Source: Escherichia phage vB-Eco-KMB23. From it: a DNA stretch of 64,000 nt. Below the pieces are notes generated by a model, which was not told the origin of the DNA, ran no database searches, and saw only the letters and a program-made list of their open reading frames with translations. Both the position numbers and the translations under genes were made by a program. How positions within the stretch are numbered: the stretch's first letter is position 1; each line of letters opens with the position of its first letter. Positions 4,480-63,553 of this stretch are shown in pieces. The DNA is taken from the sequence record OR525702.1. One strand, given 5' to 3'.

Positions 4480-4770
4480 CAACCTTGTCGGGGTTCCACC
4501 TGCTAAGGCAAGTGTTTGTACGAAACGCCGGGATTCGAACCCGGTTATTAAGTAGTTGACGCTACTCAATATTTTAAAAGGCCATATCTCGACCATATCC
4601 GAACGTTCCGTCAAAAACGCTACTCGGTTTACGGCAAACATATTTCCTCGAATCGATAATTCGGTGCGCCGTTTCTGCTGTGATAGTAAAGAGCCAGAAC
4701 ACAGTAAAACTGTGGGAGGAAACTATACTCCAGGGAACATCAGTCCGACGACTTACCGGTAGCGACCCGG
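4480..4770 (-). ncRNA. candidate structured small RNA region with tRNA-like T-arm
   Basis: No credible ORF; T-arm-like CCGGG-TTCGAAT-CCCGG at 4528..4544 (minus); small hairpins; sits between tRNA-Arg-proximal gene and terminator. May correspond to a T4 small stable RNA locus, not verified. Confidence 0.35.
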
Positions 4771-4774
4771 TTTC

Positions 4775-5125
4775 TTAGTATTCTTTTAAAGCATCAACCT
4801 GTTCACGACGTTTACGCCATAAATCAATTACTTCATACGCAGATTCAGCATTTCGAATTGGACGGCATTTATATAAAGACTTGTGATTTTGATATTGTGT
4901 AGATAACGGAATTTTATCTAAAAGGTCTTTACGTTCAAAATATTCGTAACCATCTAAACCAAATGAACGATTTTTGAGAAATTGCCAATGACCAAATTCG
5001 TTTTCGACATAAACATAATCTGCATGCTGATAAAGCAAATTAATTACACGTTCAGAAATAACAGTATCATTATGATTAAAATAGAATGTTAAATCATGAA
5101 CTACTAAATAAACATTACCTTTCAT
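4775..5125 (-). CDS. hypothetical protein
   Basis: 116 aa ORF immediately downstream (minus) of tRNA-Arg. Confidence 0.6.
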   Translation of the reverse strand: MKGNVYLVVHDLTFYFNHNDTVISERVINLLYQHADYVYVENEFGHWQFLKNRSFGLDGYEYFERKDLLDKIPLSTQYQNHKSLYKCRPIRNAESAYEVIDLWRKRREQVDALKEY

Positions 5126-5143
5126 ATTTTCCTCACTTATAAT

Positions 5144-5219
5144 TGGTCGAGGCAGTAGGGATCGAACCTACGACCCAGGACTTAGAAGGTCCTTGCTCTT
5201 CCTTCTGAGCTATGCCCCG
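5144..5219 (-). tRNA. tRNA-Arg (anticodon UCU)
   Basis: Hand-folded cloverleaf: acceptor CGGGGCA/TGCCTCG, T-arm GTAGG-TTCGATC-CCTAC, anticodon loop CT-TCT-AA, encoded CCA. Confidence 0.8.
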
Positions 5220-5223
5220 TAAT

Positions 5224-5299
5224 TGGGGTGACCGATGGGAGTCGAACCCATGACTACGAGAATCACAATCTCGAGTTCTACCAACTGAACTACGGCCAC
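5224..5299 (-). tRNA. tRNA-His (anticodon GUG)
   Basis: Acceptor GTGGCCG/CGGTCAC, D-arm TAGTTCAGTTGGTAGAACT, anticodon loop TT-GTG-AT, discriminator C, CCA encoded. Confidence 0.75.
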
Positions 5300-5413
5300 A
5301 TTAATACCTACTCCAACAATCATGATGTCTTCACACGAAATTAAGAGAAGAGTGATCAGTTCAACCCCTATAATCGCGTCAAGTAGATATTAATGTGACA
5401 GTTGTCACAAATT

Positions 5414-5488
5414 TGGCGGACGTGATAGGATTCGAACCTATAACCAATCGCTTAACAGGCGATCGCTCTGCCATTGAGCTACACATCC
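5414..5488 (-). tRNA. tRNA-Asn (anticodon GUU)
   Basis: Acceptor GGATGTG/CACGTCC, T-arm ATAGG-TTCGAAT-CCTAT, anticodon loop CT-GTT-AA, CCA encoded. Confidence 0.75.
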
Positions 5489-5492
5489 AAAT

Positions 5493-5579
5493 TGGTGGGG
5501 AGTGGTGGAGTCGAACCACCCGAGTCGCAATGACAATGGATTTACAGTCCACACCGCTACCTCTACGGGATAACTCCCC
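5493..5579 (-). tRNA. tRNA-Tyr (anticodon GUA), long variable arm
   Basis: 87 nt; acceptor GGGGAGT/ACTCCCC, anticodon loop CT-GTA-AA, long variable arm, T-arm GGTGG-TTCGACT-CCACC. Confidence 0.75.
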
Positions 5580-5591
5580 TAATTCATAATT

Positions 5592-5666
5592 TGGTGGCCC
5601 TGGGTGGAATTGAACCACCATCTGGCGATTATGAGTCGCTTGCTTGAACCTTCCAGCTACAGGGCC
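5592..5666 (-). tRNA. tRNA with CAU anticodon (Met, or Ile if lysidine-modified)
   Basis: Acceptor GGCCCTG/CAGGGCC, anticodon loop CT-CAT-AA, T-arm GGTGG-TTCAATT-CCACC. Confidence 0.75.
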
Positions 5667-5667
5667 T

Positions 5668-5743
5668 TGGTGCTGATTGACGGAATCGAACCGCCGACCT
5701 TCTCATTACAAGTGAGTTGTTCTACCTACTGAGCTAAATCAGC
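5668..5743 (-). tRNA. tRNA-Thr (anticodon UGU)
   Basis: Acceptor GCTGATT/AATCAGC, anticodon loop CT-TGT-AA, T-loop TTCGATT. Confidence 0.75.
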
Positions 5744-5748
5744 AAAAC

Positions 5749-5838
5749 TGGCGGAGGCGATAGGATTTGAACCTATGAGTCGCCGGAGCGACTGCCGGTT
5801 TTCAAGACCGGTGCATTAAACCACTCTGCCACGCCTCC
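5749..5838 (-). tRNA. tRNA-Ser (anticodon UGA), long variable arm
   Basis: 90 nt; acceptor GGAGGCG/CGCCTCC, anticodon loop CT-TGA-AA, long variable arm, T-arm ATAGG-TTCAAAT-CCTAT. Confidence 0.8.
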
Positions 5839-5844
5839 AAATAT

Positions 5845-6495
5845 TTATATATTGTTAATTTGATTTAGAATTCTTTTTGCTTGAGTATGACTTACACCAA
5901 TATGCTTAGCATATTTAGATAATTCACCACGTTTAGAAAAATCATATAATTTAGAAATTTCTATTCTTCTTTTTCTTTCATCCGCAGAAACTTTTGATTC
6001 GTTTGCTTTTGCTATTTTACGTTTAGCTTCTTGAGAATGAGTTTTACCAGCAAAGCCATTCTTCATTAATCCATTTGAAGACCATCCTTTTAATTTTCCG
6101 TTAGAATGTGCCTTTTTAACACCCAATGAAATTAATTCGCGTTGCTGATCTGTCATAGGATAATTATTTATATGATCCCATCCACCTTCACCGCCGAGTT
6201 TTAAATTATACACATCTGGTTTATTTAAAAACTCTTCTGTGACAATATTTTTCTCAGCTTCAAGCATAGATTCTTTATCATCAAAATACTCTAATATTTC
6301 TTTAGAAAAATTTTCTATACCATATTTATCTTGGGCTCTTTTTAATAATTTACCAGAACCCATATATCCATCATCTAAATTTTCGGTAGAATGCACACCA
6401 ATATAAATTTTATTATTAATTTTATTTGTTATTTTATAAAGATAAAAATGCATATCAGTCCCTAATAAAGAACTGAGCGTCTCACGACGAGTCAT
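5845..6495 (-). mobile_element. segB: GIY-YIG homing endonuclease (segB-like) embedded in tRNA array
   Basis: 216 aa; N-terminal YKITNKINNKIYIGVHST...GYMGSG matches GIY-YIG motif; gene sits 6 nt from tRNA-Ser and 5 nt from tRNA-Gly. Confidence 0.8.
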
Positions 6496-6499
6496 AAAT

Positions 6500-6573
<74 letters not shown>

Positions 6574-6578
6574 AAATT

Positions 6579-6665
6579 TGGTGCGAGAAGTGGGACTCGA
6601 ACCCACAAGGAAATCATTCCGCAGCATTTTAAGTGCTGTGCCTTTACCAATTTGACCATTCTCGC
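6579..6665 (-). tRNA. tRNA-Leu (anticodon UAA), long variable arm
   Basis: 87 nt; acceptor GCGAGAA/TTCTCGC, anticodon loop CT-TAA-AA, T-arm GTGGG-TTCGAGT-CCCAC. Confidence 0.8.
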
Positions 6666-6666
6666 G

Positions 6667-6739
6667 CTGGGAATAAAGGACTCGAACCTTTGCATCCTGG
6701 AATCAAAATCCAGTGCCTTACCAACTTGGCTAATTCCCA
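6667..6739 (-). tRNA. tRNA-Gln (anticodon UUG), CCA not encoded
   Basis: Acceptor TGGGAAT/ATTCCCA, anticodon loop TT-TTG-AT, T-arm AAAGG-TTCGAGT-CCTTT. Confidence 0.8.
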
Positions 6740-55755: not shown

Positions 55756-55759
55756 CAAC

Positions 55760-55790
55760 GGGGACCTTTCGGTCCCCATATTTTTATTTG
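55760..55790. terminator. bidirectional terminator (ggggacc-tttc-ggtcccc + T-run)
   Basis: Between convergent gene 54 and alt-region genes. Confidence 0.6.
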
Positions 55791-56074
55791 CGGAATGAAA
55801 TGAAAGCAGAAACTGAAGCAACTAAACTATCTTCAATATAAACTTCAATTTTTACCGGAGCTTCTGACTCAAATTTACCTGTTACTACACCTTGGAAAAT
55901 ACTTTCAGTTTGTTCTGGCTTTGAAAAATTTTCAGAAGGAAAAATTCCGAACTTTTTATCTGTTCCAAAAATTTTAATAAATTCATCGTAAACTGCTTCA
56001 TTAAAAGCATTATCAACAGGAATAACGCCTTCAACTACAAGTTCTTGACCTAAAAAGCGTAAAGAAGATTTCAT
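55784..56074 (-). CDS. hypothetical protein (alt.-3-like position)
   Basis: 96 aa. Confidence 0.6.
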   Translation of the reverse strand: MKSSLRFLGQELVVEGVIPVDNAFNEAVYDEFIKIFGTDKKFGIFPSENFSKPEQTESIFQGVVTGKFESEAPVKIEVYIEDSLVASVSAFISFRK

Positions 56075-56134
56075 TTTGTGTTCCTCATGTTATGTCAGTA
56101 AGACTACTATAACACAACACGAGGGACTTGTAAA

Positions 56135-58192
56135 CTACATTTTGAACTTTTTAGACATTCCGTTGATGTTAACCAAAGAAGCTAAGATTTGAGAAACTTC
56201 GTTTTCCTCTTCTTTTGATTCTTCTACAAGGAATTGATTAAATCCAGTCATTGGACGAACTTCACCAGTTTCCATTAAATGGTCGCCATCATATACTGAT
56301 TCTTCTAATTGTTCAGAAGGAGGAACGATTGTGCCTTCGATTAAATACTTGTTATAAGCAGTTTCTTTCATCATGTACGTGCTCACTTTATTAATCTTCA
56401 GCAAAATTCCACGCGGTAAAATAACTTCAGCTTCTGATGGAAATCCTGATAAATGACCTGGAACGATAACTTTGATTCGCTCAGCCCCTTTAATTACCAT
56501 ACCTACGCTAGTTTCAGCATCTTCATTAGCATATGCGGAATGACTACCCATATGCATTAAATCTTCAGCATCAACTGAACCTTCTCCTTCACCAGAAAAT
56601 ACTGCACTGGAATCATCTAAAGCCATATAGTTTTTACCATACTCACCGAAGATATTTGGTTTAAGCGATGTTGATACGAAGTTCTTGAAATAGAACATTT
56701 TATTTTCAATATTATGGCGTAAAGTTTTAAAAGTAACTTCTTGTCCACGATAAAGCGTAGTTCCTGGAGGAAGAACTGATCCTTTGGCGAATGCAGAATC
56801 CAGCGTCTCGATGTGTTTAATAGCTCGTTCCATGTATTCTTCACGAGTAGAATCTGGTTTACCCAAGAGGAACGAGTTCATTTCAACATATGAATCTGCA
56901 CAATAATCTTCAATTACATCGGACTCAGCCTGAGTTAATCCTTTTGGGGGTACTTCAGTACTTGCATATTCATACGCTTGAGAAGCAGACTCATTAATCA
57001 ATTTATAAATGCCATTCATGACAAATTGAATAATAGCTACCTTTTCATCTGGCGTGGCTTTAGAACCTTTAACTAAATCATTGACAATTTTCTTAATAAC
57101 ATCAAAGCTATTAGAAATATTAATGTCAGCAAGATCGCTCAAAATTTTATCGGTTTTATAATCAAAGAATTCTTTATTCTTTAAATATTCCTGAGAACCT
57201 TGATATGTTATATCGCTCTGTAATTTAATAGATGGATCACGTAAACGCGCATGGGCCAATGCAATATGATTTCGGAAGCTTTCTAGTTCATAATCGTTAG
57301 ATTTAAAACGAGAAGCACTCCTCATACCACCGATAGCTCCTTTGCTGAAGTTTGAACCAATCTGAATAACGCCAGAGTTCATTGGTCCTTCTGCTTTATA
57401 TACCGGAACTTTAGATTCAAACTCTTGATATTTCTTAGCGGCGAAGCTATCACCCTGAAGTGAAGCATCAACAGTAGAATATTGAGCTTGTGCTGCTAAT
57501 CGACGACTAATTTTAGTTTTCTGAATAACAGCTTGATCCGTGCGCTTATCATTTTCTAAAGCAATAGAAGCAGCAACAGCAACAGCTTTAGGAACAGCAT
57601 TACCTGTTTTAACATCTACATAAACATCACCAACCTTTGATTCAACTTTTGTGAATAACTCAGTTGAAATAGGAGGTACACCTGGAATGTCTTCTAAATT
57701 GGCATTTTTACGGTAAACCATAATATATGCATACTTTTTATCATAATCCCAGATTTCCTTTAAAAGAACATATCGACCTGCTCCTTTAGTACGTACTAAA
57801 CGGTCAGCAATAACTTGCATTTGACGAGCAGCGCCATTTGTTTTACTTTTTAGTACGCGGAATAGGCATGCGTCAATTTTATACTGTTTCATTGTTTGAA
57901 GAGCAGTATCAAAAACCGCATTAATGACACCAATTGGATTTCCACCCAAGTTTTTAAGTTTAACTAATGATAGTTTCTCATTAACACCTATCATTACGAT
58001 ATGCATCATTTTATCGCCTGGCTTAACGTTTTTATTTGTATCACCGCCAGAGGTGTATGTACAAAATCTAAATCCAGGAAGCACGCTTTCTTCACCAGCT
58101 TGAATAGCAAAAATTTGAGGTATTTTATGCTTAGGATTTAAGTTAACAACCGGCGCCGAAGCGCCGTCAAATAATTCTGTAATAAGTTCCAT
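56135..58192 (-). CDS. Alt-family mono-ADP-ribosyltransferase paralog
   Basis: 685 aa; shares N-terminal MELITELFD... and C-terminal R...STS...EAEVILPRG (R-S-ExE) motifs with neighbouring alt. Confidence 0.85.
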   Translation of the reverse strand: MELITELFDGASAPVVNLNPKHKIPQIFAIQAGEESVLPGFRFCTYTSGGDTNKNVKPGDKMMHIVMIGVNEKLSLVKLKNLGGNPIGVINAVFDTALQTMKQYKIDACLFRVLKSKTNGAARQMQVIADRLVRTKGAGRYVLLKEIWDYDKKYAYIMVYRKNANLEDIPGVPPISTELFTKVESKVGDVYVDVKTGNAVPKAVAVAASIALENDKRTDQAVIQKTKISRRLAAQAQYSTVDASLQGDSFAAKKYQEFESKVPVYKAEGPMNSGVIQIGSNFSKGAIGGMRSASRFKSNDYELESFRNHIALAHARLRDPSIKLQSDITYQGSQEYLKNKEFFDYKTDKILSDLADINISNSFDVIKKIVNDLVKGSKATPDEKVAIIQFVMNGIYKLINESASQAYEYASTEVPPKGLTQAESDVIEDYCADSYVEMNSFLLGKPDSTREEYMERAIKHIETLDSAFAKGSVLPPGTTLYRGQEVTFKTLRHNIENKMFYFKNFVSTSLKPNIFGEYGKNYMALDDSSAVFSGEGEGSVDAEDLMHMGSHSAYANEDAETSVGMVIKGAERIKVIVPGHLSGFPSEAEVILPRGILLKINKVSTYMMKETAYNKYLIEGTIVPPSEQLEESVYDGDHLMETGEVRPMTGFNQFLVEESKEEENEVSQILASLVNINGMSKKFKM

Positions 58193-58195
58193 GAT

Positions 58196-60292
58196 TTATC
58201 CTTGAACGAACTTGTAAGGCATGTTTGTAATATCTATGCAAGACGCAATAATTCCAAGAGATGATTCTACTTTTTGTTTAACATTTGATGAAACAAATGA
58301 TGCAAAATCAACTCTGTCTTCTATTTCAATATCACCTGTCATTGCAACTACTTCACCAGTTTCCATTAGACGATCACCGTCATAAATTACTGATTCGGTG
58401 AGTTCTTCCGTAGTCATAACTTCAGCTTGAATGAGTTTTGTATTATTAGATGTTGTTCCGTCATTATTAGAAGCATCAGTTATTTTATTAACTTTGACCA
58501 TCAATCCGCGTGGTAGAATAACTTCAGCTTCTGTTGCTATTCCGAGACTTCCTGGATATACAACATTAACTTTATGAGCTCCATCAATTGCCCATCCTAT
58601 TTGAACTTTAACGTATTCAGGATTTTCTTTATACGCTCTTATTTCGTTTGGATTAATAGTTATTCCTTCTTCATTTTTATCAACTGTCAATTCATTACGA
58701 GCTTCTGGTTCTAAAAGACCAATACCAGCATGTGTAATTCCAAAACGTCCAAAAATGATAGGAGTTAAAGAAGTAGATACAAAATTTCTGAAATAGAATA
58801 CTTTATTTTTAACTAGTGCTTCGTATATAGGAGCAGTCATACTTTGAGCACGATAAACTGTAATGCCTTCTGGTATACGGTCACCATTTTCAAAAGCTGA
58901 ATCTAAGTTATTTATAGCAGATTCAATTTCTTTTTCACTCATTACATCATATCGTTCTGGATTGTAGCGTCCTAAAAGAAGATTATTGATGTCAGTATAT
59001 CCTGAACCACAATACTCTCTAATACCACGCTTTTGTGATGGAGTATATTTAGAACCATCACGAGCAATAGTAATATCAATCATTGGACCTGCACCAATTC
59101 CAGAAAAGCTATAAATCATTCGTTTGAGGAATTTAGTTTTTGCTGCGTTCCAGGAATTTTTAGTTATTTCTTCCCAGACTTCATCTGACTGCCCTTTACG
59201 AGTTTTATTATGTTTATCAAGCCAATTATCTTTATATTCTTCAAAGAATTGATTAACAGCTGCTGCGTATTTCTCTAAACATTTTATTGAAGTAGTTGGT
59301 TCATTTTTAATCGCATTAAGAATTACATCTTTAATTTTTTCAGAAACTTCATTAACCTCACTTTTTGAAAAGAATTTATAGTCATAATGAAGTTCATCTG
59401 CAGTTCCTTCAGCAATAATTTTTGCTGCTTTAGTTTTAGAAGCCAATGAATTAATTCCAAGTTTCATTTCTTCTGCTTCGGGAATTAAAGGAGCGGTAGC
59501 AGGTTTATTGAAATTAGCTGCGGTAGATTCATACTTCTGGAATAATTCACTTTCAAATCTAGAAGATTCTAATGATTGACTTTGTGCAATTGCTCTACGG
59601 GAAATTTTAACTTTAACGATTACAGCTTGGTCAGAACGTTTATCATTTTCTTGCGCAATAGATGCAGCAATTGCCTCATTTTTAGTTACTTGAGCTCCAG
59701 TATCTTTATTGATATAAACATCACCGACCTTCGATTCAACTTTAGTAAAGAGCTCGGTACTAATTTCCGGAACTCCTGGAATGTCTTCTAGTGATACATT
59801 TTTGCGATGTATAAGAATATATGCATACTTTTTATCGTAATCCCAGAGTTCCTTAAGAAGGACGTATCTGCCACCTGAACGACTGCGGATAAGTCTATCA
59901 GCAATAAGTTGAATTTGACGAGCTTGACCAGCAGTTTTAGACTTAAGAATACGGAGCATACAGGCATCAATTTTATACTGACGCATCGTCTGCATCGCAA
60001 CAGTAAAAACTGAATTGATGTAATTAATTGGGCTTGGACCGAGACCTTTTAATTTAGCAATTGAACCTTTAGCAGTTAATGTAAAAGGAACAATATGCAT
60101 CATTTTATCGCCCATCTTTAAATCGCGATTAGTATCACCTCCAGATGTATAGGTACATAAACGAAAGCCTGGTTGTTCAATTGCGTCATCAACATGAACT
60201 GAAAAAATTTGTGGTATTTTCTTCTTTGGATTTAAGTTTGTAATCGGAAGAGTAGTATCTTCGTCAAATAATTCTGTAATGAGTTCCATCAT
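58196..60292 (-). CDS. alt: Alt ADP-ribosyltransferase (packaged, modifies host RNA polymerase)
   Basis: 698 aa (start may be second Met, 60289); YRAQ...STS...EAEVILPRG motifs; late promoter upstream. Confidence 0.88.
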   Translation of the reverse strand: MMELITELFDEDTTLPITNLNPKKKIPQIFSVHVDDAIEQPGFRLCTYTSGGDTNRDLKMGDKMMHIVPFTLTAKGSIAKLKGLGPSPINYINSVFTVAMQTMRQYKIDACMLRILKSKTAGQARQIQLIADRLIRSRSGGRYVLLKELWDYDKKYAYILIHRKNVSLEDIPGVPEISTELFTKVESKVGDVYINKDTGAQVTKNEAIAASIAQENDKRSDQAVIVKVKISRRAIAQSQSLESSRFESELFQKYESTAANFNKPATAPLIPEAEEMKLGINSLASKTKAAKIIAEGTADELHYDYKFFSKSEVNEVSEKIKDVILNAIKNEPTTSIKCLEKYAAAVNQFFEEYKDNWLDKHNKTRKGQSDEVWEEITKNSWNAAKTKFLKRMIYSFSGIGAGPMIDITIARDGSKYTPSQKRGIREYCGSGYTDINNLLLGRYNPERYDVMSEKEIESAINNLDSAFENGDRIPEGITVYRAQSMTAPIYEALVKNKVFYFRNFVSTSLTPIIFGRFGITHAGIGLLEPEARNELTVDKNEEGITINPNEIRAYKENPEYVKVQIGWAIDGAHKVNVVYPGSLGIATEAEVILPRGLMVKVNKITDASNNDGTTSNNTKLIQAEVMTTEELTESVIYDGDRLMETGEVVAMTGDIEIEDRVDFASFVSSNVKQKVESSLGIIASCIDITNMPYKFVQG

Positions 60293-60313
60293 ATCCTCTC
60301 TAGTGTTTATTCT

Positions 60314-60321
60314 ATTTATAA
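60314..60321 (-). promoter_or_regulatory. late promoter TATAAATA for alt
   Basis: Plus tatttata about 22 nt upstream of alt ATG. Confidence 0.6.
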
Positions 60322-60326
60322 AATTA

Positions 60327-60344
60327 AAGGCCCGAAGGCCTTTA
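60327..60344 (-). terminator. hairpin terminator (aaaggcc-cgaa-ggccttt) downstream of small ORF / upstream of alt
   Basis: Perfect inverted repeat. Confidence 0.5.
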
Positions 60345-60530
60345 ATAATCTATTGGTAAGAGAGTACGATATATTTCAAACTTTGGACCTTTTTCATAAG
60401 CATCAAATGTTTCTGTGAATTTATTATAAGCATATGCATCTATAAATTCAATCATAATTTGTGATACAGAAGTAGAAACATCTCCACCTTCTTTTTGAGC
60501 AACGACAATTGTTTCTAAGTAAGCTTTCAT
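60342..60530 (-). CDS. hypothetical protein
   Basis: 62 aa ORF overlapping ligase stop. Confidence 0.55.
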   Translation of the reverse strand: MKAYLETIVVAQKEGGDVSTSVSQIMIEFIDAYAYNKFTETFDAYEKGPKFEIYRTLLPIDY

Positions 60531-61990
60531 AGACCAGTTACCTCATGAAAATCACCAAATACATCCTCGAATGTATTAGCTTTAGTTTTATCTTCACGTA
60601 AACGAATCGCAATTGGAAGAAATAATTTTACATAATCGGTGCGGCCATCAGATTTTAGCCAACCGTTGCATTCGCACTCTAGAATTTTTCCAATATAATA
60701 ATTTTGGTTTTCCATAATGCGAGTACGGTCAAGTTCATGTGATTTTACACCGGCTTTATCTTTTAAGCCTGAACCAGCATTTACTTTAATTTTTCCACAC
60801 TCTGATTCAAGAATAAATCCACCTGCTTTAGTAGGGTCTTTACGGTGAGGATAAATTCCTACAATTTTTAAATCAACATCAATTACTTCTTTAAATTTAT
60901 AGAGATTTTTTGAACGAGCATTTTCCCACAATCCATCGGTATTTTTGAGAATAATACCTTCAAGACCTTGGTCAATATATTTTTTATAAATTACCTTAGC
61001 TTCATCTAGGTTATTTACTACCTGGTTTTCAATTAAAATTACTTTATCATAGCCTGATGTCATTTGTTCTAGTTTAGAAAAACGTACATCATATTTTAAA
61101 CGAAACGCCGGAAGACCATATATTTCTACTAATGGAACATAGTCCCAGACCTGAAACTTCATGCATTGTGCTTCTTTTTCAGAAATGGTTCCCTTTAAAG
61201 ATTTATTAGCGATTCCATTAGAAGTAGTACGTGATTCAGCTACTTCAGCGAATTCTTTAGCTTTACTAATTTCAGGATAAGCATCAAAAAGAAAATCTAG
61301 GCCTTCTGGTTCCTTTTCAACTTGCTCATGGTATACCAATTCGCCATCAATTAACACACCTTCTGGATGAATCTGGCGGGCTTCAGCGGTCATTTTGATT
61401 AACTCTTCTTTAAGAAGATCTAATCCTAGATATTCATTACCAGCTCGTGATAAAAGACGAACATCATCTAATTCATCACCTCTGACTTCAGCAAAGCACC
61501 GAGCTCCATCAGCTTTTAATTGGGCAAAGGCTGGAAATTTGATATTCTTATTAATGCCTTTTTCATCATAAGAACTTGCCAGCATTTGAGGTTGTTCAGG
61601 AATTAAACCTGGCCAAACTTTGTTTGCAATAGATACTGAAGCACCGCATTCAAGGTCTCGCATCATCACTCGACGCAAAACTTCAACATCATCTTTTTTA
61701 CCATCGGTGATATATCCAATTAATTCCTCAATTGCCGCATTTCCAGTCAATTTCCGAGTAGCTAACGTGAATTCAATGAAGTCAAGCATATCGGTAATAG
61801 TCAGCATCCCAAAACTCTGGGTAGCAATACCGGGTTTAGGCCATTTCTTTATATAATACTGTAACCCACGAGAATAAGTCAGACGATATACTCGTTTGAG
61901 CAATTCATTATCTTTATTCTTTTCAAGAATTGCTTGCTTCTGCTTAGTTGAACCAATAGATGCTATTTCGTTCAGAATTTTAAGAATCAT
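60527..61990 (-). CDS. 30: gp30 ATP-dependent DNA ligase
   Basis: 487 aa; adenylation motif KADGARCF and OB domain. Confidence 0.97.
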   Translation of the reverse strand: MILKILNEIASIGSTKQKQAILEKNKDNELLKRVYRLTYSRGLQYYIKKWPKPGIATQSFGMLTITDMLDFIEFTLATRKLTGNAAIEELIGYITDGKKDDVEVLRRVMMRDLECGASVSIANKVWPGLIPEQPQMLASSYDEKGINKNIKFPAFAQLKADGARCFAEVRGDELDDVRLLSRAGNEYLGLDLLKEELIKMTAEARQIHPEGVLIDGELVYHEQVEKEPEGLDFLFDAYPEISKAKEFAEVAESRTTSNGIANKSLKGTISEKEAQCMKFQVWDYVPLVEIYGLPAFRLKYDVRFSKLEQMTSGYDKVILIENQVVNNLDEAKVIYKKYIDQGLEGIILKNTDGLWENARSKNLYKFKEVIDVDLKIVGIYPHRKDPTKAGGFILESECGKIKVNAGSGLKDKAGVKSHELDRTRIMENQNYYIGKILECECNGWLKSDGRTDYVKLFLPIAIRLREDKTKANTFEDVFGDFHEVTGL

Positions 61991-62256
61991 TGTTCATCCT
62001 TTAGAGTTTGGTTTACAGCTCTATTATAAATCAATTCATCATTAAGCTCAGTCAAAGACCTATGGTACGTGGTTCTAACTTTATTTCCTTGCATCCAATG
62101 CTTGACGTAAATGAAACCTTGCTCTACACATTTTTTAAAAATTCGTTCGTCTTTTTGAGCTCGGAATTCTGGATTGCATCTAAAAAATTGATTTACGTGA
62201 CCGTAATCACGTGTAGTATTACCTTCATTTTCATAAATAGTGTGAACAACAAACAT
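61987..62256 (-). CDS. hypothetical protein (30.1-like)
   Basis: 89 aa. Confidence 0.65.
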   Translation of the reverse strand: MFVVHTIYENEGNTTRDYGHVNQFFRCNPEFRAQKDERIFKKCVEQGFIYVKHWMQGNKVRTTYHRSLTELNDELIYNRAVNQTLKDEQ

Positions 62257-63092
62257 TAGAATGCTCCTTGGAAAATATTATCACCACTAGTAGGTCTATT
62301 ATACAAATACTCTATACCACCGGGTTTAATATAGTTCCATGTCTGAAACGGATGCGTCTGATATGGATGATATGGATTATAAGGATTAAATCCAGGAGTT
62401 CTCCAGGTAGTGTTCCAACGAAAAGAATCATTTTTAATCATCTTTTCAATTACATCTTTTATAGCTTTTTCACTATCAAAACTTTCTTTATTTTCCTTCG
62501 GTGAAAAAAGCTTATTCTCTACATCGTTCCATGTATAAACTCGCTGAGCGGTTTTTGGAATACTGTCACGTTCCCCTCGAGCCATCCAATACACAGGAAC
62601 ACGTAATATTTCACTCGCATGATCGCAGTGGTGAGCGAGATCGTCAATATAACAAATTACGTTATATTTCTCTTTTGCCTTTTTGAACAACTCTTCTTTT
62701 GAAGAATCATGACCACACATCATTACTTCTGAGAAGGCACCAGGAAAAAGAGCATTCAAATTAAATTGACGATTCAACAGAGCGTCAATAGAATCACCCA
62801 ATGCTGTAACAGCTACAAAATTATAATCTTCTTTTAATTTGTTAATTACACACAGAGCATCTTTATATGGAGACAAGTAACGAATAAAATCTGATCGATT
62901 GTATTTTTCAATTAGCTTAACGCCAAGTTCTTCATCACAGTTAAAGAGTTTACCAGGAGAAATAAATTTCTCATCCTGGATCATTTTTAAAATATGTTCT
63001 AACGGAAGATTATATTTCTGAGCAAAATAAGGAAGGCCTGATTGCCAGCTTAAACATACTCCATCAATATCAGTTAAAATAGTAAGCTTCAT
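62256..63092 (-). CDS. HAD-superfamily hydrolase-like protein (30.2-like)
   Basis: 278 aa; N-terminal motif I LTDIDGV. Confidence 0.7.
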   Translation of the reverse strand: MKLTILTDIDGVCLSWQSGLPYFAQKYNLPLEHILKMIQDEKFISPGKLFNCDEELGVKLIEKYNRSDFIRYLSPYKDALCVINKLKEDYNFVAVTALGDSIDALLNRQFNLNALFPGAFSEVMMCGHDSSKEELFKKAKEKYNVICYIDDLAHHCDHASEILRVPVYWMARGERDSIPKTAQRVYTWNDVENKLFSPKENKESFDSEKAIKDVIEKMIKNDSFRWNTTWRTPGFNPYNPYHPYQTHPFQTWNYIKPGGIEYLYNRPTSGDNIFQGAF

Positions 63093-63553
63093 AGAGAGTC
63101 TCTTAATAGGTTTAACACATCAATAAATTCAGCTTCGGTTAGTATTGTATCATCTTTTGTTAGACCACTAGCCATGCTGTGCTTCAAAACTTTTCCTTTC
63201 GAGGCTTGTAATGCATCACGAAAGCCCCTGTTTTGGATCGCTGCTTCAAAATATGCATTTGTGTATAATTCTTTCCACGCTGGGGAGTATCTTGAAAACG
63301 GAACTCCAAGCCAGAAGAGGGTCCCACGGTCCTGAGCTCTTGCATAAGACCTTCCAGCTTGTTGGGCGGCAAGACCGGATAACCCAAATATACGACGTTG
63401 TTGTTCAACATTTTTCACCTTGCACCCTTGGAGGAATCCTTCAAGACCTCCAAATTGAATACCATCCATAACGAAAGGCCATTGGGCGAAATTACTTAAT
63501 GCACATGATGGCCACCTAAAATTGCTTCTAATCTCTAACTCAGACATTTTCAA
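63089..63553 (-). CDS. NADAR/YbiA (DUF1768)-like protein (30.3-like)
   Basis: 154 aa; LSNFAQWPFVMDGIQF resembles YbiA FSNFAAWPIKVDGKTW core. Confidence 0.7.
   Translation of the reverse strand: MKMSELEIRSNFRWPSCALSNFAQWPFVMDGIQFGGLEGFLQGCKVKNVEQQRRIFGLSGLAAQQAGRSYARAQDRGTLFWLGVPFSRYSPAWKELYTNAYFEAAIQNRGFRDALQASKGKVLKHSMASGLTKDDTILTEAEFIDVLNLLRDSL

Follow-up and report, generated by a model that had tools for sequence, protein, structure and literature searches.

Two predicted Alt-family ADP-ribosyltransferases and a probably independent NADAR enzyme in the alt–ligase–30.3 region of a T4-like coliphage

The DNA analysed here, a stretch of 64,000 nucleotides from Escherichia phage vB-Eco-KMB23 (OR525702.1; hereafter the window), contains two adjacent genes for putative ADP-ribosyltransferases (ARTs) and, less than 3 kb away on that strand, a gene that resembles the NADAR family. 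The locus raises the question whether these genes form a writer-eraser pair for ADP-ribose, and what a second ART would contribute beside the first. The first-pass annotation considered a functional link conceivable, and added that the genes could be nothing more than the usual T4 neighbours alt and 30.3. The latter remark was essentially right, except that the second ART gene is not intact in T4. Indeed, the window is a segment of a Tequatrovirus (T4-like) genome, and the locus is the alt–ligase–30.3 region in the form usual for a T4-like coliphage. The nearest deposited record across the region is vB_Eco_EH2, and the nearest one with an informative annotation is Bas37 (KarlGJung). The reading that we favor, a T4-like alt/alt2 late unit encoding injected ARTs together with an independent AdfN, is as a whole given a probability of roughly 0.8.

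The two ART genes lie side by side on the minus strand, as had been annotated: alt2 (56135..58192, 685 aa) and alt (58196..60289, 697 aa). For alt, the second ATG at 60289, where T4 Alt is annotated to start, is probably the start codon, and not the first ATG at 60292 that was taken by the ORF finder (698 aa). The gene is the positional ortholog of T4 alt and is of the Bas37/T6/RB27 allele type. The start of alt2 is found 3 nt past the alt stop and is preceded by its own Shine-Dalgarno sequence, AAGGA. About 20 nt 5' of the alt start codon, a pattern search and reading of the sequence revealed a T4-type late promoter motif, TATAAATA (60313..60320, minus strand), which is enriched in the window (24 found versus 9.6 expected); in T4, alt is a late gene (PMC9697503). 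Directly 5' of this motif, at the end of alt.1, lies a G+C-rich stem-loop, AAAGGCCTTCGGGCCTTT (60326..60343, minus strand), also recognized by reading the sequence, which we infer to be terminator-like and which would part the ligase/alt.1 transcript from the alt unit. At the other end, the final gene of the leftward block is a homolog of alt.-3 (55784..56074, minus strand; 96 aa, DUF5498; PF17602, E 3e-63, in line with the T4 annotation), and a bidirectional terminator-like hairpin (55758..55779) separates it from gene 54 on the plus strand. The segment 55784-60320 constitutes a late transcription unit that runs from the late promoter through alt, alt2 and alt.-3 to the terminator. In addition, a promoter scan found a T4-early-like -35/-10 pair (GTTTACA ... 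TATAGT) at 56134-56106, near alt.-3.

The NADAR-like gene, 30.3 or adfN (63089..63547, minus strand), lies outside this unit. Its start is most likely the ATG at 63547, giving 152 aa as in T4, and not the TTG at 63553. The protein belongs to PF08010 (E 5e-70, 234 bits, cutoff 36) and is identical to T4 AdfN (gp30.3) at 150 of 152 positions over the full length, with two conservative substitutions only (K107R and I125M) and with the same neighbours, 30.2 and 30.4. Being full length, it includes the C-terminal helix that is missing in RB69. Its assignment to the NADAR family was borne out by the literature (PMC11825919, PMC11125620) and by a comparison of a six-sequence gp30.3 profile with E. 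coli YbiA in hhalign (probability 86%, E 4.9e-6, 107 columns). The support for a homology of the YbiA type is nevertheless moderate and in part literature-based, because plain searches were negative: gp30.3 had no match to PF08719 in Pfam at E <= 10, phmmer retrieved no NADAR chain from the PDB, and YbiA was not matched either. The catalytic Glu36 and Lys43 and the phage-type His, as defined in PMC11825919 and PMC11543638, are present as E36, K43 and H123 (the last in the final strand), and six diverse homologs all have E36 and H123.

AdfN has been described as a DNA ADP-ribosylglycohydrolase that removes DarT1-made ADP-ribose from DNA and thereby counters DarTG1 (PMC11825919, PMC11125620), and its nearest relatives are DarT1-associated NADARs (PMC11825919). 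According to PMC11825919 and the retrieved passages of the HIDEN-SEQ preprint (10.1101/2025.11.20.689424), it is dispensable on K-12 and essential when DarTG1 is present. Considering the sequence identity, gp30.3 of the window is AdfN, the DNA (guanine) glycohydrolase activity having been shown for the 99%-identical T4 protein. It would act as an independent NADAR enzyme that strips DarT1-made ADP-ribose from guanines in phage DNA, without an Alt partner. We also considered gp30.2 as a HAD-type partner of AdfN; searches of Pfam, NCBIfam and PDB sequences gave no match in favor of it. An N-terminal DIDGV motif and the annotation of one GenBank record are the sole indications that gp30.2 is of the HAD type.

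The alternative is that gp30.3 acts on the proteins modified by the Alt paralogs, and so reverses or tunes their ADP-ribosylation. Both are concerned with ADP-ribose chemistry and are encoded close together, and AdfN is fully effective only within a T-even infection, so that a further phage factor is needed (PMC11825919); moreover, we found no published test of a NADAR protein on arginine-linked protein ADP-ribose. However, the function on DarT1-made DNA ADP-ribose has been demonstrated and is sufficient to explain the gene, and the NADAR substrates in the cited papers are guanine-linked ADP-ribose on DNA, joined by the cytidine-linked form in the title of one later paper. The genomic context also argues against the link. 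The genes are neither adjacent nor co-transcribed: 2.8 kb with four genes (60342..63092, minus strand; ORFs and Pfam, colinear with the T4 annotation) lie between them, namely alt.1 (60342-60530), the DNA ligase gene 30 (60527-61990), 30.1 (61987-62256) and 30.2 (62256-63092), and alt has its separate late promoter behind the terminator-like hairpin. In DarT1-NADAR (DarTG1) operons an ART gene and a NADAR gene likewise occur in one genome, but there the ART is a DarT, whereas Alt and Alt2 are both of the R-S-E, C3/VIP2 type that modifies proteins, and the NADAR enzyme of the phage acts against the DarT1 of the host and not against an ART of its own. Co-distribution was not apparent either: counted as totals per family, gp30.3 homologs occur in 1510 phage records, those of Vibrio, Rhizobium and Ralstonia phages included, versus 1222 for Alt-like proteins, and the host-genus profiles differ (Klebsiella 272 versus 163; Vibrio 55 versus none among the top genera listed). 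Finally, T4 has one Alt and not two, and its gp30.3 is 99% identical to that of the window. We therefore regard a writer-eraser pair as very improbable and rejected AdfN as the eraser of Alt, on the basis of context and known function rather than of a direct negative assay. The reading of AdfN as an independent enzyme is retained. Its function has already been published; what the locus still points to is the target range of Alt2.

The relation between the two ART genes is clear from their comparison. The encoded proteins align over their full length (BLASTP, 41% identity, E 3e-164), and both the common N-terminal region and the diverged middle that had been noted at first sight were recovered: the first ~240 residues are 65-70% identical and start with MELITE in both, residues ~240-420 are essentially unalignable (15-20% identity), and the ART domains are ~40-45% identical, with a conserved block, ESV(I)YDGDxLMETGEV, near the C-terminus. 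Both match PF03496 (ADPrib_exo_Tox, cutoff 23.4 bits), Alt with 129 bits (E 1.8e-37) and Alt2 with 72.9 bits (E 3e-20), as well as PHROG 802 'Alt-like' (E 2e-272 and E 9e-256, respectively). The catalytic motifs read LYR482, FVS507-T-S509 and E587-A-E589 in Alt2 and VYR, FVSTS and EAE in Alt, and the R, STS and ExE motifs do not vary in alignments that include T4 Alt, ModA, ModB and 17 homologs. In particular, R482, S507, E587 and E589 (Alt2 numbering) are invariant in the alignment with the three T4 enzymes, so that the loss of catalytic residues that could have undone the proposal was seen in neither paralog. The R and E-x-E of Alt furthermore align with those of CDTa and iota Ia. Judged by sequence, Alt and Alt2 are paralogous mono-ADP-ribosyltransferases of the R-S-E (C3/VIP2/Alt) clade, the activity of Alt2 being a prediction. 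ModA and ModB are more remote: although their R-S-E residues align, they are only 17-19% identical to the ART domain of Alt2 and, at ~200 aa, have neither the N-terminal and helical domains nor the cleavage motifs; both are early, non-packaged enzymes whose genes lie outside this locus.

An AlphaFold model of Alt2 (pLDDT 73 overall, mostly 75-90 in the ART region) suggests an N-terminal alpha/beta domain (residues ~12-222), an all-helical middle (~230-470), an R-S-E ART domain (~475-625) and a C-terminal tail of low confidence (629-685). In a Foldseek search of the PDB the model matched Vis toxin (E 4e-7), followed by C3bot, CDTa, iota and VIP2, with a target-normalised TM score of ~0.6. The model, which covers Alt2 as the one paralog put to this test, thus predicts an ART fold like that of C3 and VIP2. 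The C3 exoenzyme, Vis toxin and the binary-toxin components (iota Ia, CDTa, VIP2) have the catalytic-domain fold and the R/STS/ExE residues in common with Alt2, but they are secreted bacterial toxins with other delivery domains, 14-21% identical to Alt2, and the TM score of ~0.6 applies to the ART domain only. Searching PDB sequences with phmmer gave no match for Alt2, and for the N-terminal and middle regions of Alt there was nothing credible in Pfam at E <= 10 (no MuF) and nothing in NCBIfam.

The alt2 gene is not particular to this phage. The product is identical to bas37_0032 of Bas37, annotated as 'ADP-ribosyltransferase Alt2', at 678 of 685 positions (99%), and bas37_0032 corresponds to KMB99_gp201 of T6 and to an RB27 gene labelled 'alt.-2', with the same position and orientation as in the window. 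There is no substantive difference from bas37_0032: alt2 of the window is the same gene from another isolate. Both ART genes have already been annotated in hundreds of deposited genomes (twice as 'Alt-like RNA polymerase ADP-ribosyltransferase', and as 'Alt2' in the BASEL phage Bas37), and the duplication of alt has been noted in print (PMC1524935, 2006; PMC13600099, 2026). Our search of the literature for 'Alt2' and for virion proteomics of two-Alt phages yielded nothing, nor did we find an experimental characterisation of bas37_0032; the retrieved passages of the HIDEN-SEQ preprint highlight bas37_0033 (Alt) and do not include bas37_0032.

In T4 the situation is different, and the possibility that the same two genes had been characterised there as an intact pair did not hold. 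The T4 products alt.-1 and alt.-2 (NP_049810, NP_049809) correspond to residues ~1-54 and ~62-117 of Alt2, with a nearly identical sequence, and the PHROG families built on them give stronger matches to Alt2 than to Alt. T4 has the equivalent of window positions 56126-56153 joined straight to 57854 onward: a frame disruption is combined with a deletion of 1,700 bp between two copies of the 9-bp direct repeat ACTTTTTAG (56145..56153 and 57845..57853, plus strand), so that nothing is left of the middle, the ART domain or the tail. The alt.-1 and alt.-2 genes of T4 are a deletion remnant of alt2. The two-gene state is ancestral and common, alt2 having been lost in T4 by the 1.7-kb deletion at 9-bp microhomology, and in ECML-134 the alt/alt2 pair has collapsed to one hybrid gene. 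T4, the best-studied phage, is an alt2 deletion mutant, so that the putative second injected ART, which most T-even phages encode, has escaped biochemical study.

One might take these fragments, the lower PF03496 score of Alt2 and the lack of a direct PDB sequence match to mean that Alt2 is a pseudo-enzyme or a decaying gene. Against this, the 685-codon ORF is unbroken in every full-length ortholog examined, 401 phage records contain the alt2 segment that is absent from T4, and full-length alt2 is found in ~400 deposited phage genomes, that of T6 among them. The catalytic residues (R482, S507/S509, E587/E589) are invariant and the modelled ART domain matches active toxins. Moreover, purifying selection among orthologs is strong, with a whole-gene dN/dS of 0.02-0.06 at a dS of 0.12-0.23, values of at most 0.11 in every region and 0.02-0.055 in the ART domain. 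A loss of function is the least probable of the explanations considered, and we take Alt2 to be a maintained, predicted enzyme.

The alt gene itself occurs in two forms. Alt of the window is identical to bas37_0033 ('Alt' of Bas37) at 694 of 698 positions, whereas it is 70% identical to T4 Alt (NP_049811): ~99% in residues 1-247, ~30% in the middle, 60-70% in the ART domain and more than 90% in the tail. Along the alignment of the alleles the edges of the divergent block are sharp (CDS columns ~743 and ~1867; approximately 58423..59550, minus strand), with a dS of at least 1 and a dN of 0.26-0.70 inside and a dS of 0.1-0.25 in the flanks. The alleles of the window, Bas37, T6 and RB27 on the one hand and of T4 and AR1 on the other therefore differ by an anciently diverged, recombining cassette that comprises the central and catalytic block. 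T4 Alt is a head-packaged, injected NAD+:arginine mono-ADP-ribosyltransferase; Alt of the window resembles it in having alt.1 and ligase upstream, the position of the late promoter, the ITE and LTE motifs and the R/STS/ExE residues, but residues ~248-620 (middle domain and ART core) belong to the other allele. The difference may well matter, as T4 Alt, and not Bas37 Alt, restores evasion of Mokosh type I according to the retrieved passages of the HIDEN-SEQ preprint, and the Bas37 allele that failed to replace T4 Alt there is near-identical to that of the window.

For T4 Alt it has been reported that ~40 copies are packaged (PMC9026906) and that gp21 cleaves at ITE-6 and LTE-619, MELITE being the N-terminal propeptide (PMC5694885). 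At the level of motif presence, MELITE followed by L occurs in Alt and Alt2 alike, and the C-terminal site, LTE followed by S in Alt, is aligned with LEE followed by S (E631) in Alt2, with V(I)YDGDxLMETGE downstream of each. By analogy with T4 Alt, both proteins would be synthesised late, incorporated into the prohead core, trimmed by the prohead protease gp21 at the conserved N-terminal I-T-E and C-terminal L-x-E, and injected with the DNA, so that host proteins become ADP-ribosylated as soon as the next infection begins. [quoted passage not shown] RpoA at Arg265) has been established in the literature for T4 Alt only, and for Alt2 we infer packaging, processing, enzymatic activity and distinct substrates. 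The N-terminal domain of ~240 residues is conserved between the paralogs and is the likely common packaging or ejection module. Divergence almost beyond alignment is seen in the helical middle and on the ART surface, which would most likely confer different, possibly overlapping, target sets; different substrates, as first suggested, are plausible.

Another account is that Alt2 is functionally redundant, sharing the targets of Alt and contributing only dosage or a backup. Indeed, the paralogs have the N-terminal domain and catalytic core in common, Alt is non-essential in T4 (PMC9026906), and T4 without alt2 and ECML-134 with its fused gene are viable. As these phages thrive on a single gene, Alt2 is not required, in laboratory hosts at any rate, and its function may overlap in part with that of Alt. 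However, the low overall identity and the divergence of the middle domain argue against identical targets, and the two alleles of Alt, far more similar than Alt and Alt2, are not interchangeable with respect to Mokosh type I in the preprint passages at hand. Furthermore, ~400 genomes have retained the two copies intact, under strong purifying selection, which is not expected of plain redundancy in a compact phage genome. We consider full redundancy unlikely. It is tentatively suggested instead, with somewhat less than even confidence, that Alt2 is injected as a second effector and acts on host targets of its own, perhaps neutralising one particular bacterial defence system, much as T4 Alt contributes to the evasion of Mokosh type I. 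If so, the two Alt cassettes, combined with an Alt2 that is present, absent or fused, would represent a small exchangeable repertoire of 'first-minute' ADP-ribosylating effectors shaped by the arms race with host immunity, and the conserved N-terminal domain would serve as a general module for head packaging and ejection. On the evidence of the preprint passages, the Alt alleles differ in the host defences that they overcome.

As a separate observation, the fold of this conserved N-terminal domain was weakly seen at the N-termini of large phage proteins with zeta-toxin, deaminase or ParB domains.

The locus is an ordinary one that had already been annotated, and the first-pass annotation read it accurately. 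In a megablast search the final 8.3 kb of the window matched 697 phage records, almost all of them T4-like phages of Escherichia, Shigella and Yersinia, and 403 of the 697 kept colinearity across 80% or more of this segment. The top matches were vB_Eco_EH2 (98.3%) and Bas37/KarlGJung (97.3%). According to the ORFs, Pfam and the T4 annotation, the plus strand carries 29, 48 and 54 and the minus strand alt.-3, alt, alt.1, 30 (DNA ligase), 30.1, 30.2, 30.3 and 30.4, the same gene order as in T4. The genes are thus indeed the ordinary T4 alt and 30.3 neighbours, as had been considered, but T4 is without an intact alt2. Both alt genes are annotated in hundreds of GenBank records. Duplication of alt among T4-like phages was remarked on in 2006 (PMC1524935), and in 2026 two Alt-like paralogs with 43% identity were described in a Tequatrovirus, with speculation on their functional divergence (PMC13600099). 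Experimental work on Alt2 was not found in the literature.

The two minus-strand ORFs, alt (58196-60292, 698 aa) and alt2 (56135-58192, 685 aa), lie 3 nt apart and encode clear paralogs, as proposed earlier: the proteins share 41% identity over their full length (E 3e-164) and both contain the PF03496 ADP-ribosyltransferase (ART) domain (Alt, E 1.8e-37; Alt2, E 3e-20). The description of a shared N-terminus followed by a diverged middle was also borne out. More specifically, in a three-way alignment with T4 Alt the first ~240 residues were 65-70% identical, whereas identity fell to just 15-20% over residues ~240-420; it was ~40-45% in the catalytic domain, and an ESV(I)YDGDxLMETGEV block close to the C-terminus was kept in all three proteins. 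Both paralogs possess the ART signature. The catalytic Arg, Ser-Thr-Ser and Glu-x-Glu did not vary when the paralogs were aligned with T4 Alt, ModA, ModB and 17 homologs from the database, so that the loss of catalytic residues from one paralog, which had been named as a possible objection, is absent. In addition, the Arg and Glu-x-Glu of CDTa and iota toxin align with the Alt-family residues. In the AlphaFold model of Alt2 (685 aa, pLDDT 73), an N-domain of alpha/beta type is followed by a middle domain made up entirely of helices, then by an ART domain rich in beta structure and finally by a tail that is disordered; the PDB matches of its ART domain are Vis toxin, C3, CDTa, iota and VIP2 (E down to 4e-7). 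Alt corresponds in position to T4 Alt, of which it is the ortholog (70% identity), and is identical to bas37_0033, annotated 'Alt', at 694 of 698 residues. Alt2 is identical to bas37_0032, annotated 'ADP-ribosyltransferase Alt2', at 678 of 685, and alt2 is also annotated in T6, RB27 (as 'alt.-2') and AR1.

A second Pfam family, PF26846, is listed on every Alt-like protein in the database's precomputed annotation. The predicted fold of the Alt2 N-terminal domain (window 57473-58192) recurs weakly in BFVD (E 1e-7 to 1e-4, TM 0.4-0.5), the matches being the N-termini of uncharacterised proteins of 500-1280 aa from unrelated phages, some of which bear zeta-toxin, deaminase or ParB domains. Judging from these models, the Alt N-terminal fold may be a common module for packaging or delivery.

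The state of alt2 varies between phages. T4 does not carry the same two ORFs, a prospect that had been raised against the proposal. Its short ORFs alt.-1 and alt.-2, annotated in the T4 record as an old duplication of the alt start, match residues 1-54 and 62-117 of Alt2, respectively, with near identity, and the PHROG families derived from these two ORFs fit Alt2 (E 2e-40 and 3e-38) better than Alt (E 1e-21 and 2e-19). In fact, the T4 junction consists of window 56126-56153 fused directly to 57854 onward and lies inside a 9-bp direct repeat, ACTTTTTAG (56145-56153 and 57845-57853; about 5105-5113 in the T4 locus, L001), and therefore represents a microhomology deletion. T4 alt.-2 derives from a full-length alt2 via this 1,700-bp deletion, with ACTTTTTAG as the exact end points. 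The segment deleted in T4 is present in 401 phage records at a coverage of at least 80%. A third state is found in ECML-134 (L004 2981-5041), where the sole alt gene is an in-frame hybrid with ~150 N-terminal codons from alt and the remainder from alt2; it evidently arose through recombination between the conserved N-terminal domains of both paralogs. We considered whether alt2 is a pseudogene or encodes a pseudo-enzyme. Among five full-length orthologs its dN/dS was 0.02-0.06 (at dS 0.12-0.23) and did not exceed 0.11 region by region, the middle and ART domains included; the ORF was unbroken and the catalytic residues were retained in all five, which argues against either possibility.

The alt gene itself occurs as two allele types, as was apparent from a comparison of the T4 and AR1 loci (L001, L006) with those of the Bas37, T6 and RB27 type (L002, L003, L005). 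In its first 247 codons and again in the C-terminal tail, alt of the window, Bas37, T6 and RB27 is near-identical to alt of T4 or AR1 (dS about 0.1-0.25). Between these flanks lies a block with sharp boundaries (window 58423-59550, middle plus ART) in which dS against the T4/AR1 allele is at least 1; the middle domain has a dN of 0.7 and the ART domain one of 0.26. By these distances, the block is anciently diverged between the two allele types. In AR1 a full-length alt2 accompanies an alt allele of the T4 type, and therefore allele type and alt2 presence assort independently. The cassette looks as if it has been swapped by recombination within the conserved flanks. Such an exchange fits the difference between T4 and Bas37 Alt against the host defence Mokosh type I, evasion of which is restored by the former and not by the latter according to a recent preprint (10.1101/2025.11.20.689424).

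A T4-type late promoter motif, TATAAATA, is located ~20 nt 5' of alt and is immediately preceded by a G+C-rich hairpin in which alt.1 ends; alt2, 3 nt after alt, has its own Shine-Dalgarno sequence. In T4, alt belongs to the late genes (PMC9697503), and its product is a prohead-core protein of about 40 copies (PMC9026906) that is cleaved by gp21 at ITE-6 and LTE-619 (PMC5694885). At the aligned positions gp21 motifs are found in Alt (ITE and LTE) and in Alt2 (ITE and LEE-631). Considering the late promoter, the biology of T4 Alt and these motifs, we may reasonably infer by analogy that Alt2 would likewise be packaged, processed and injected. Downstream, a T4-early-like promoter (G-TTTACA, 17 nt, TG-TATAGT; 56106-56134, minus strand) begins at the alt2 stop codon, before alt.-3, so that alt.-3 may also be transcribed apart from the late alt unit. 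A bidirectional hairpin follows 3' of alt.-3.

The ORF described as NADAR/YbiA-like (63089-63547, minus strand) is gp30.3 (PF08010, E 5e-70), with 150 of 152 residues identical to T4 gp30.3 over the full length. A profile of six gp30.3 sequences aligned with E. coli YbiA (probability 86%, E 4.9e-6), which upholds that description; plain Pfam and PDB sequence searches missed the relationship. T4 gp30.3 has been renamed AdfN, a NADAR-fold protein in which E36 and K43 matter functionally; it strips DarT1-made ADP-ribose off DNA in vitro and is responsible for the DarTG1 resistance of T-even phages, RB69 with its truncated copy being sensitive (PMC11825919; PMC11125620). A transposon screen confirmed that adfN is essential only with DarTG1 present (10.1101/2025.11.20.689424). 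In the window protein E36 and K43 are present, as is the phage-type His123.

It had been suggested as conceivable that gp30.3 reverses or tunes the ADP-ribosylation made by the Alt paralogs. We regard this as highly improbable. Between the genes lie 30.2, 30.1, the gene for DNA ligase and alt.1, alt is under its own late promoter, and the distributions are unequal, with gp30.3 homologs in 1510 phage records against Alt-like proteins in 1222 and differing host profiles. Moreover, the gp30.3 gene is unchanged in T4, a phage with a single Alt, and the presence of AdfN is fully explained by its known function. The eraser pair is thus rejected on genomic context and not on a negative assay, because a direct NADAR assay on arginine-linked protein ADP-ribose was not found in the published literature.

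AdfN reportedly depends on a further T-even factor (PMC11825919), for which gp30.2 is a candidate. The start of gene 30.2 (62256-63092, minus strand) overlaps the adfN stop (ATGA, 63089-63092), and by this overlap the two genes may be translationally coupled. A HAD-like DIDGV motif stands at the N-terminus of gp30.2, and its homolog is annotated as a HAD-like hydrolase in one GenBank record (PEC04); Pfam, NCBIfam and PDB sequence searches yielded nothing for gp30.2. Inside adfN, a 75-aa ORF in another frame (63184-63411, minus strand) matches the T4 30.3' annotation, 'internal translation in a different reading frame'.

Elsewhere in the window, a minus-strand tRNA cluster (4518-6739) comprises 11 predicted genes (Lys, Arg, His, Asn, Tyr, Met, Thr, Ser, Gly, Leu and Gln) versus 8 reported for T4; the 94-nt tRNA-Lys prediction (4518-4611) lacks Rfam confirmation. 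A 216-aa ORF (5845-6495) sits between the two tRNA blocks.
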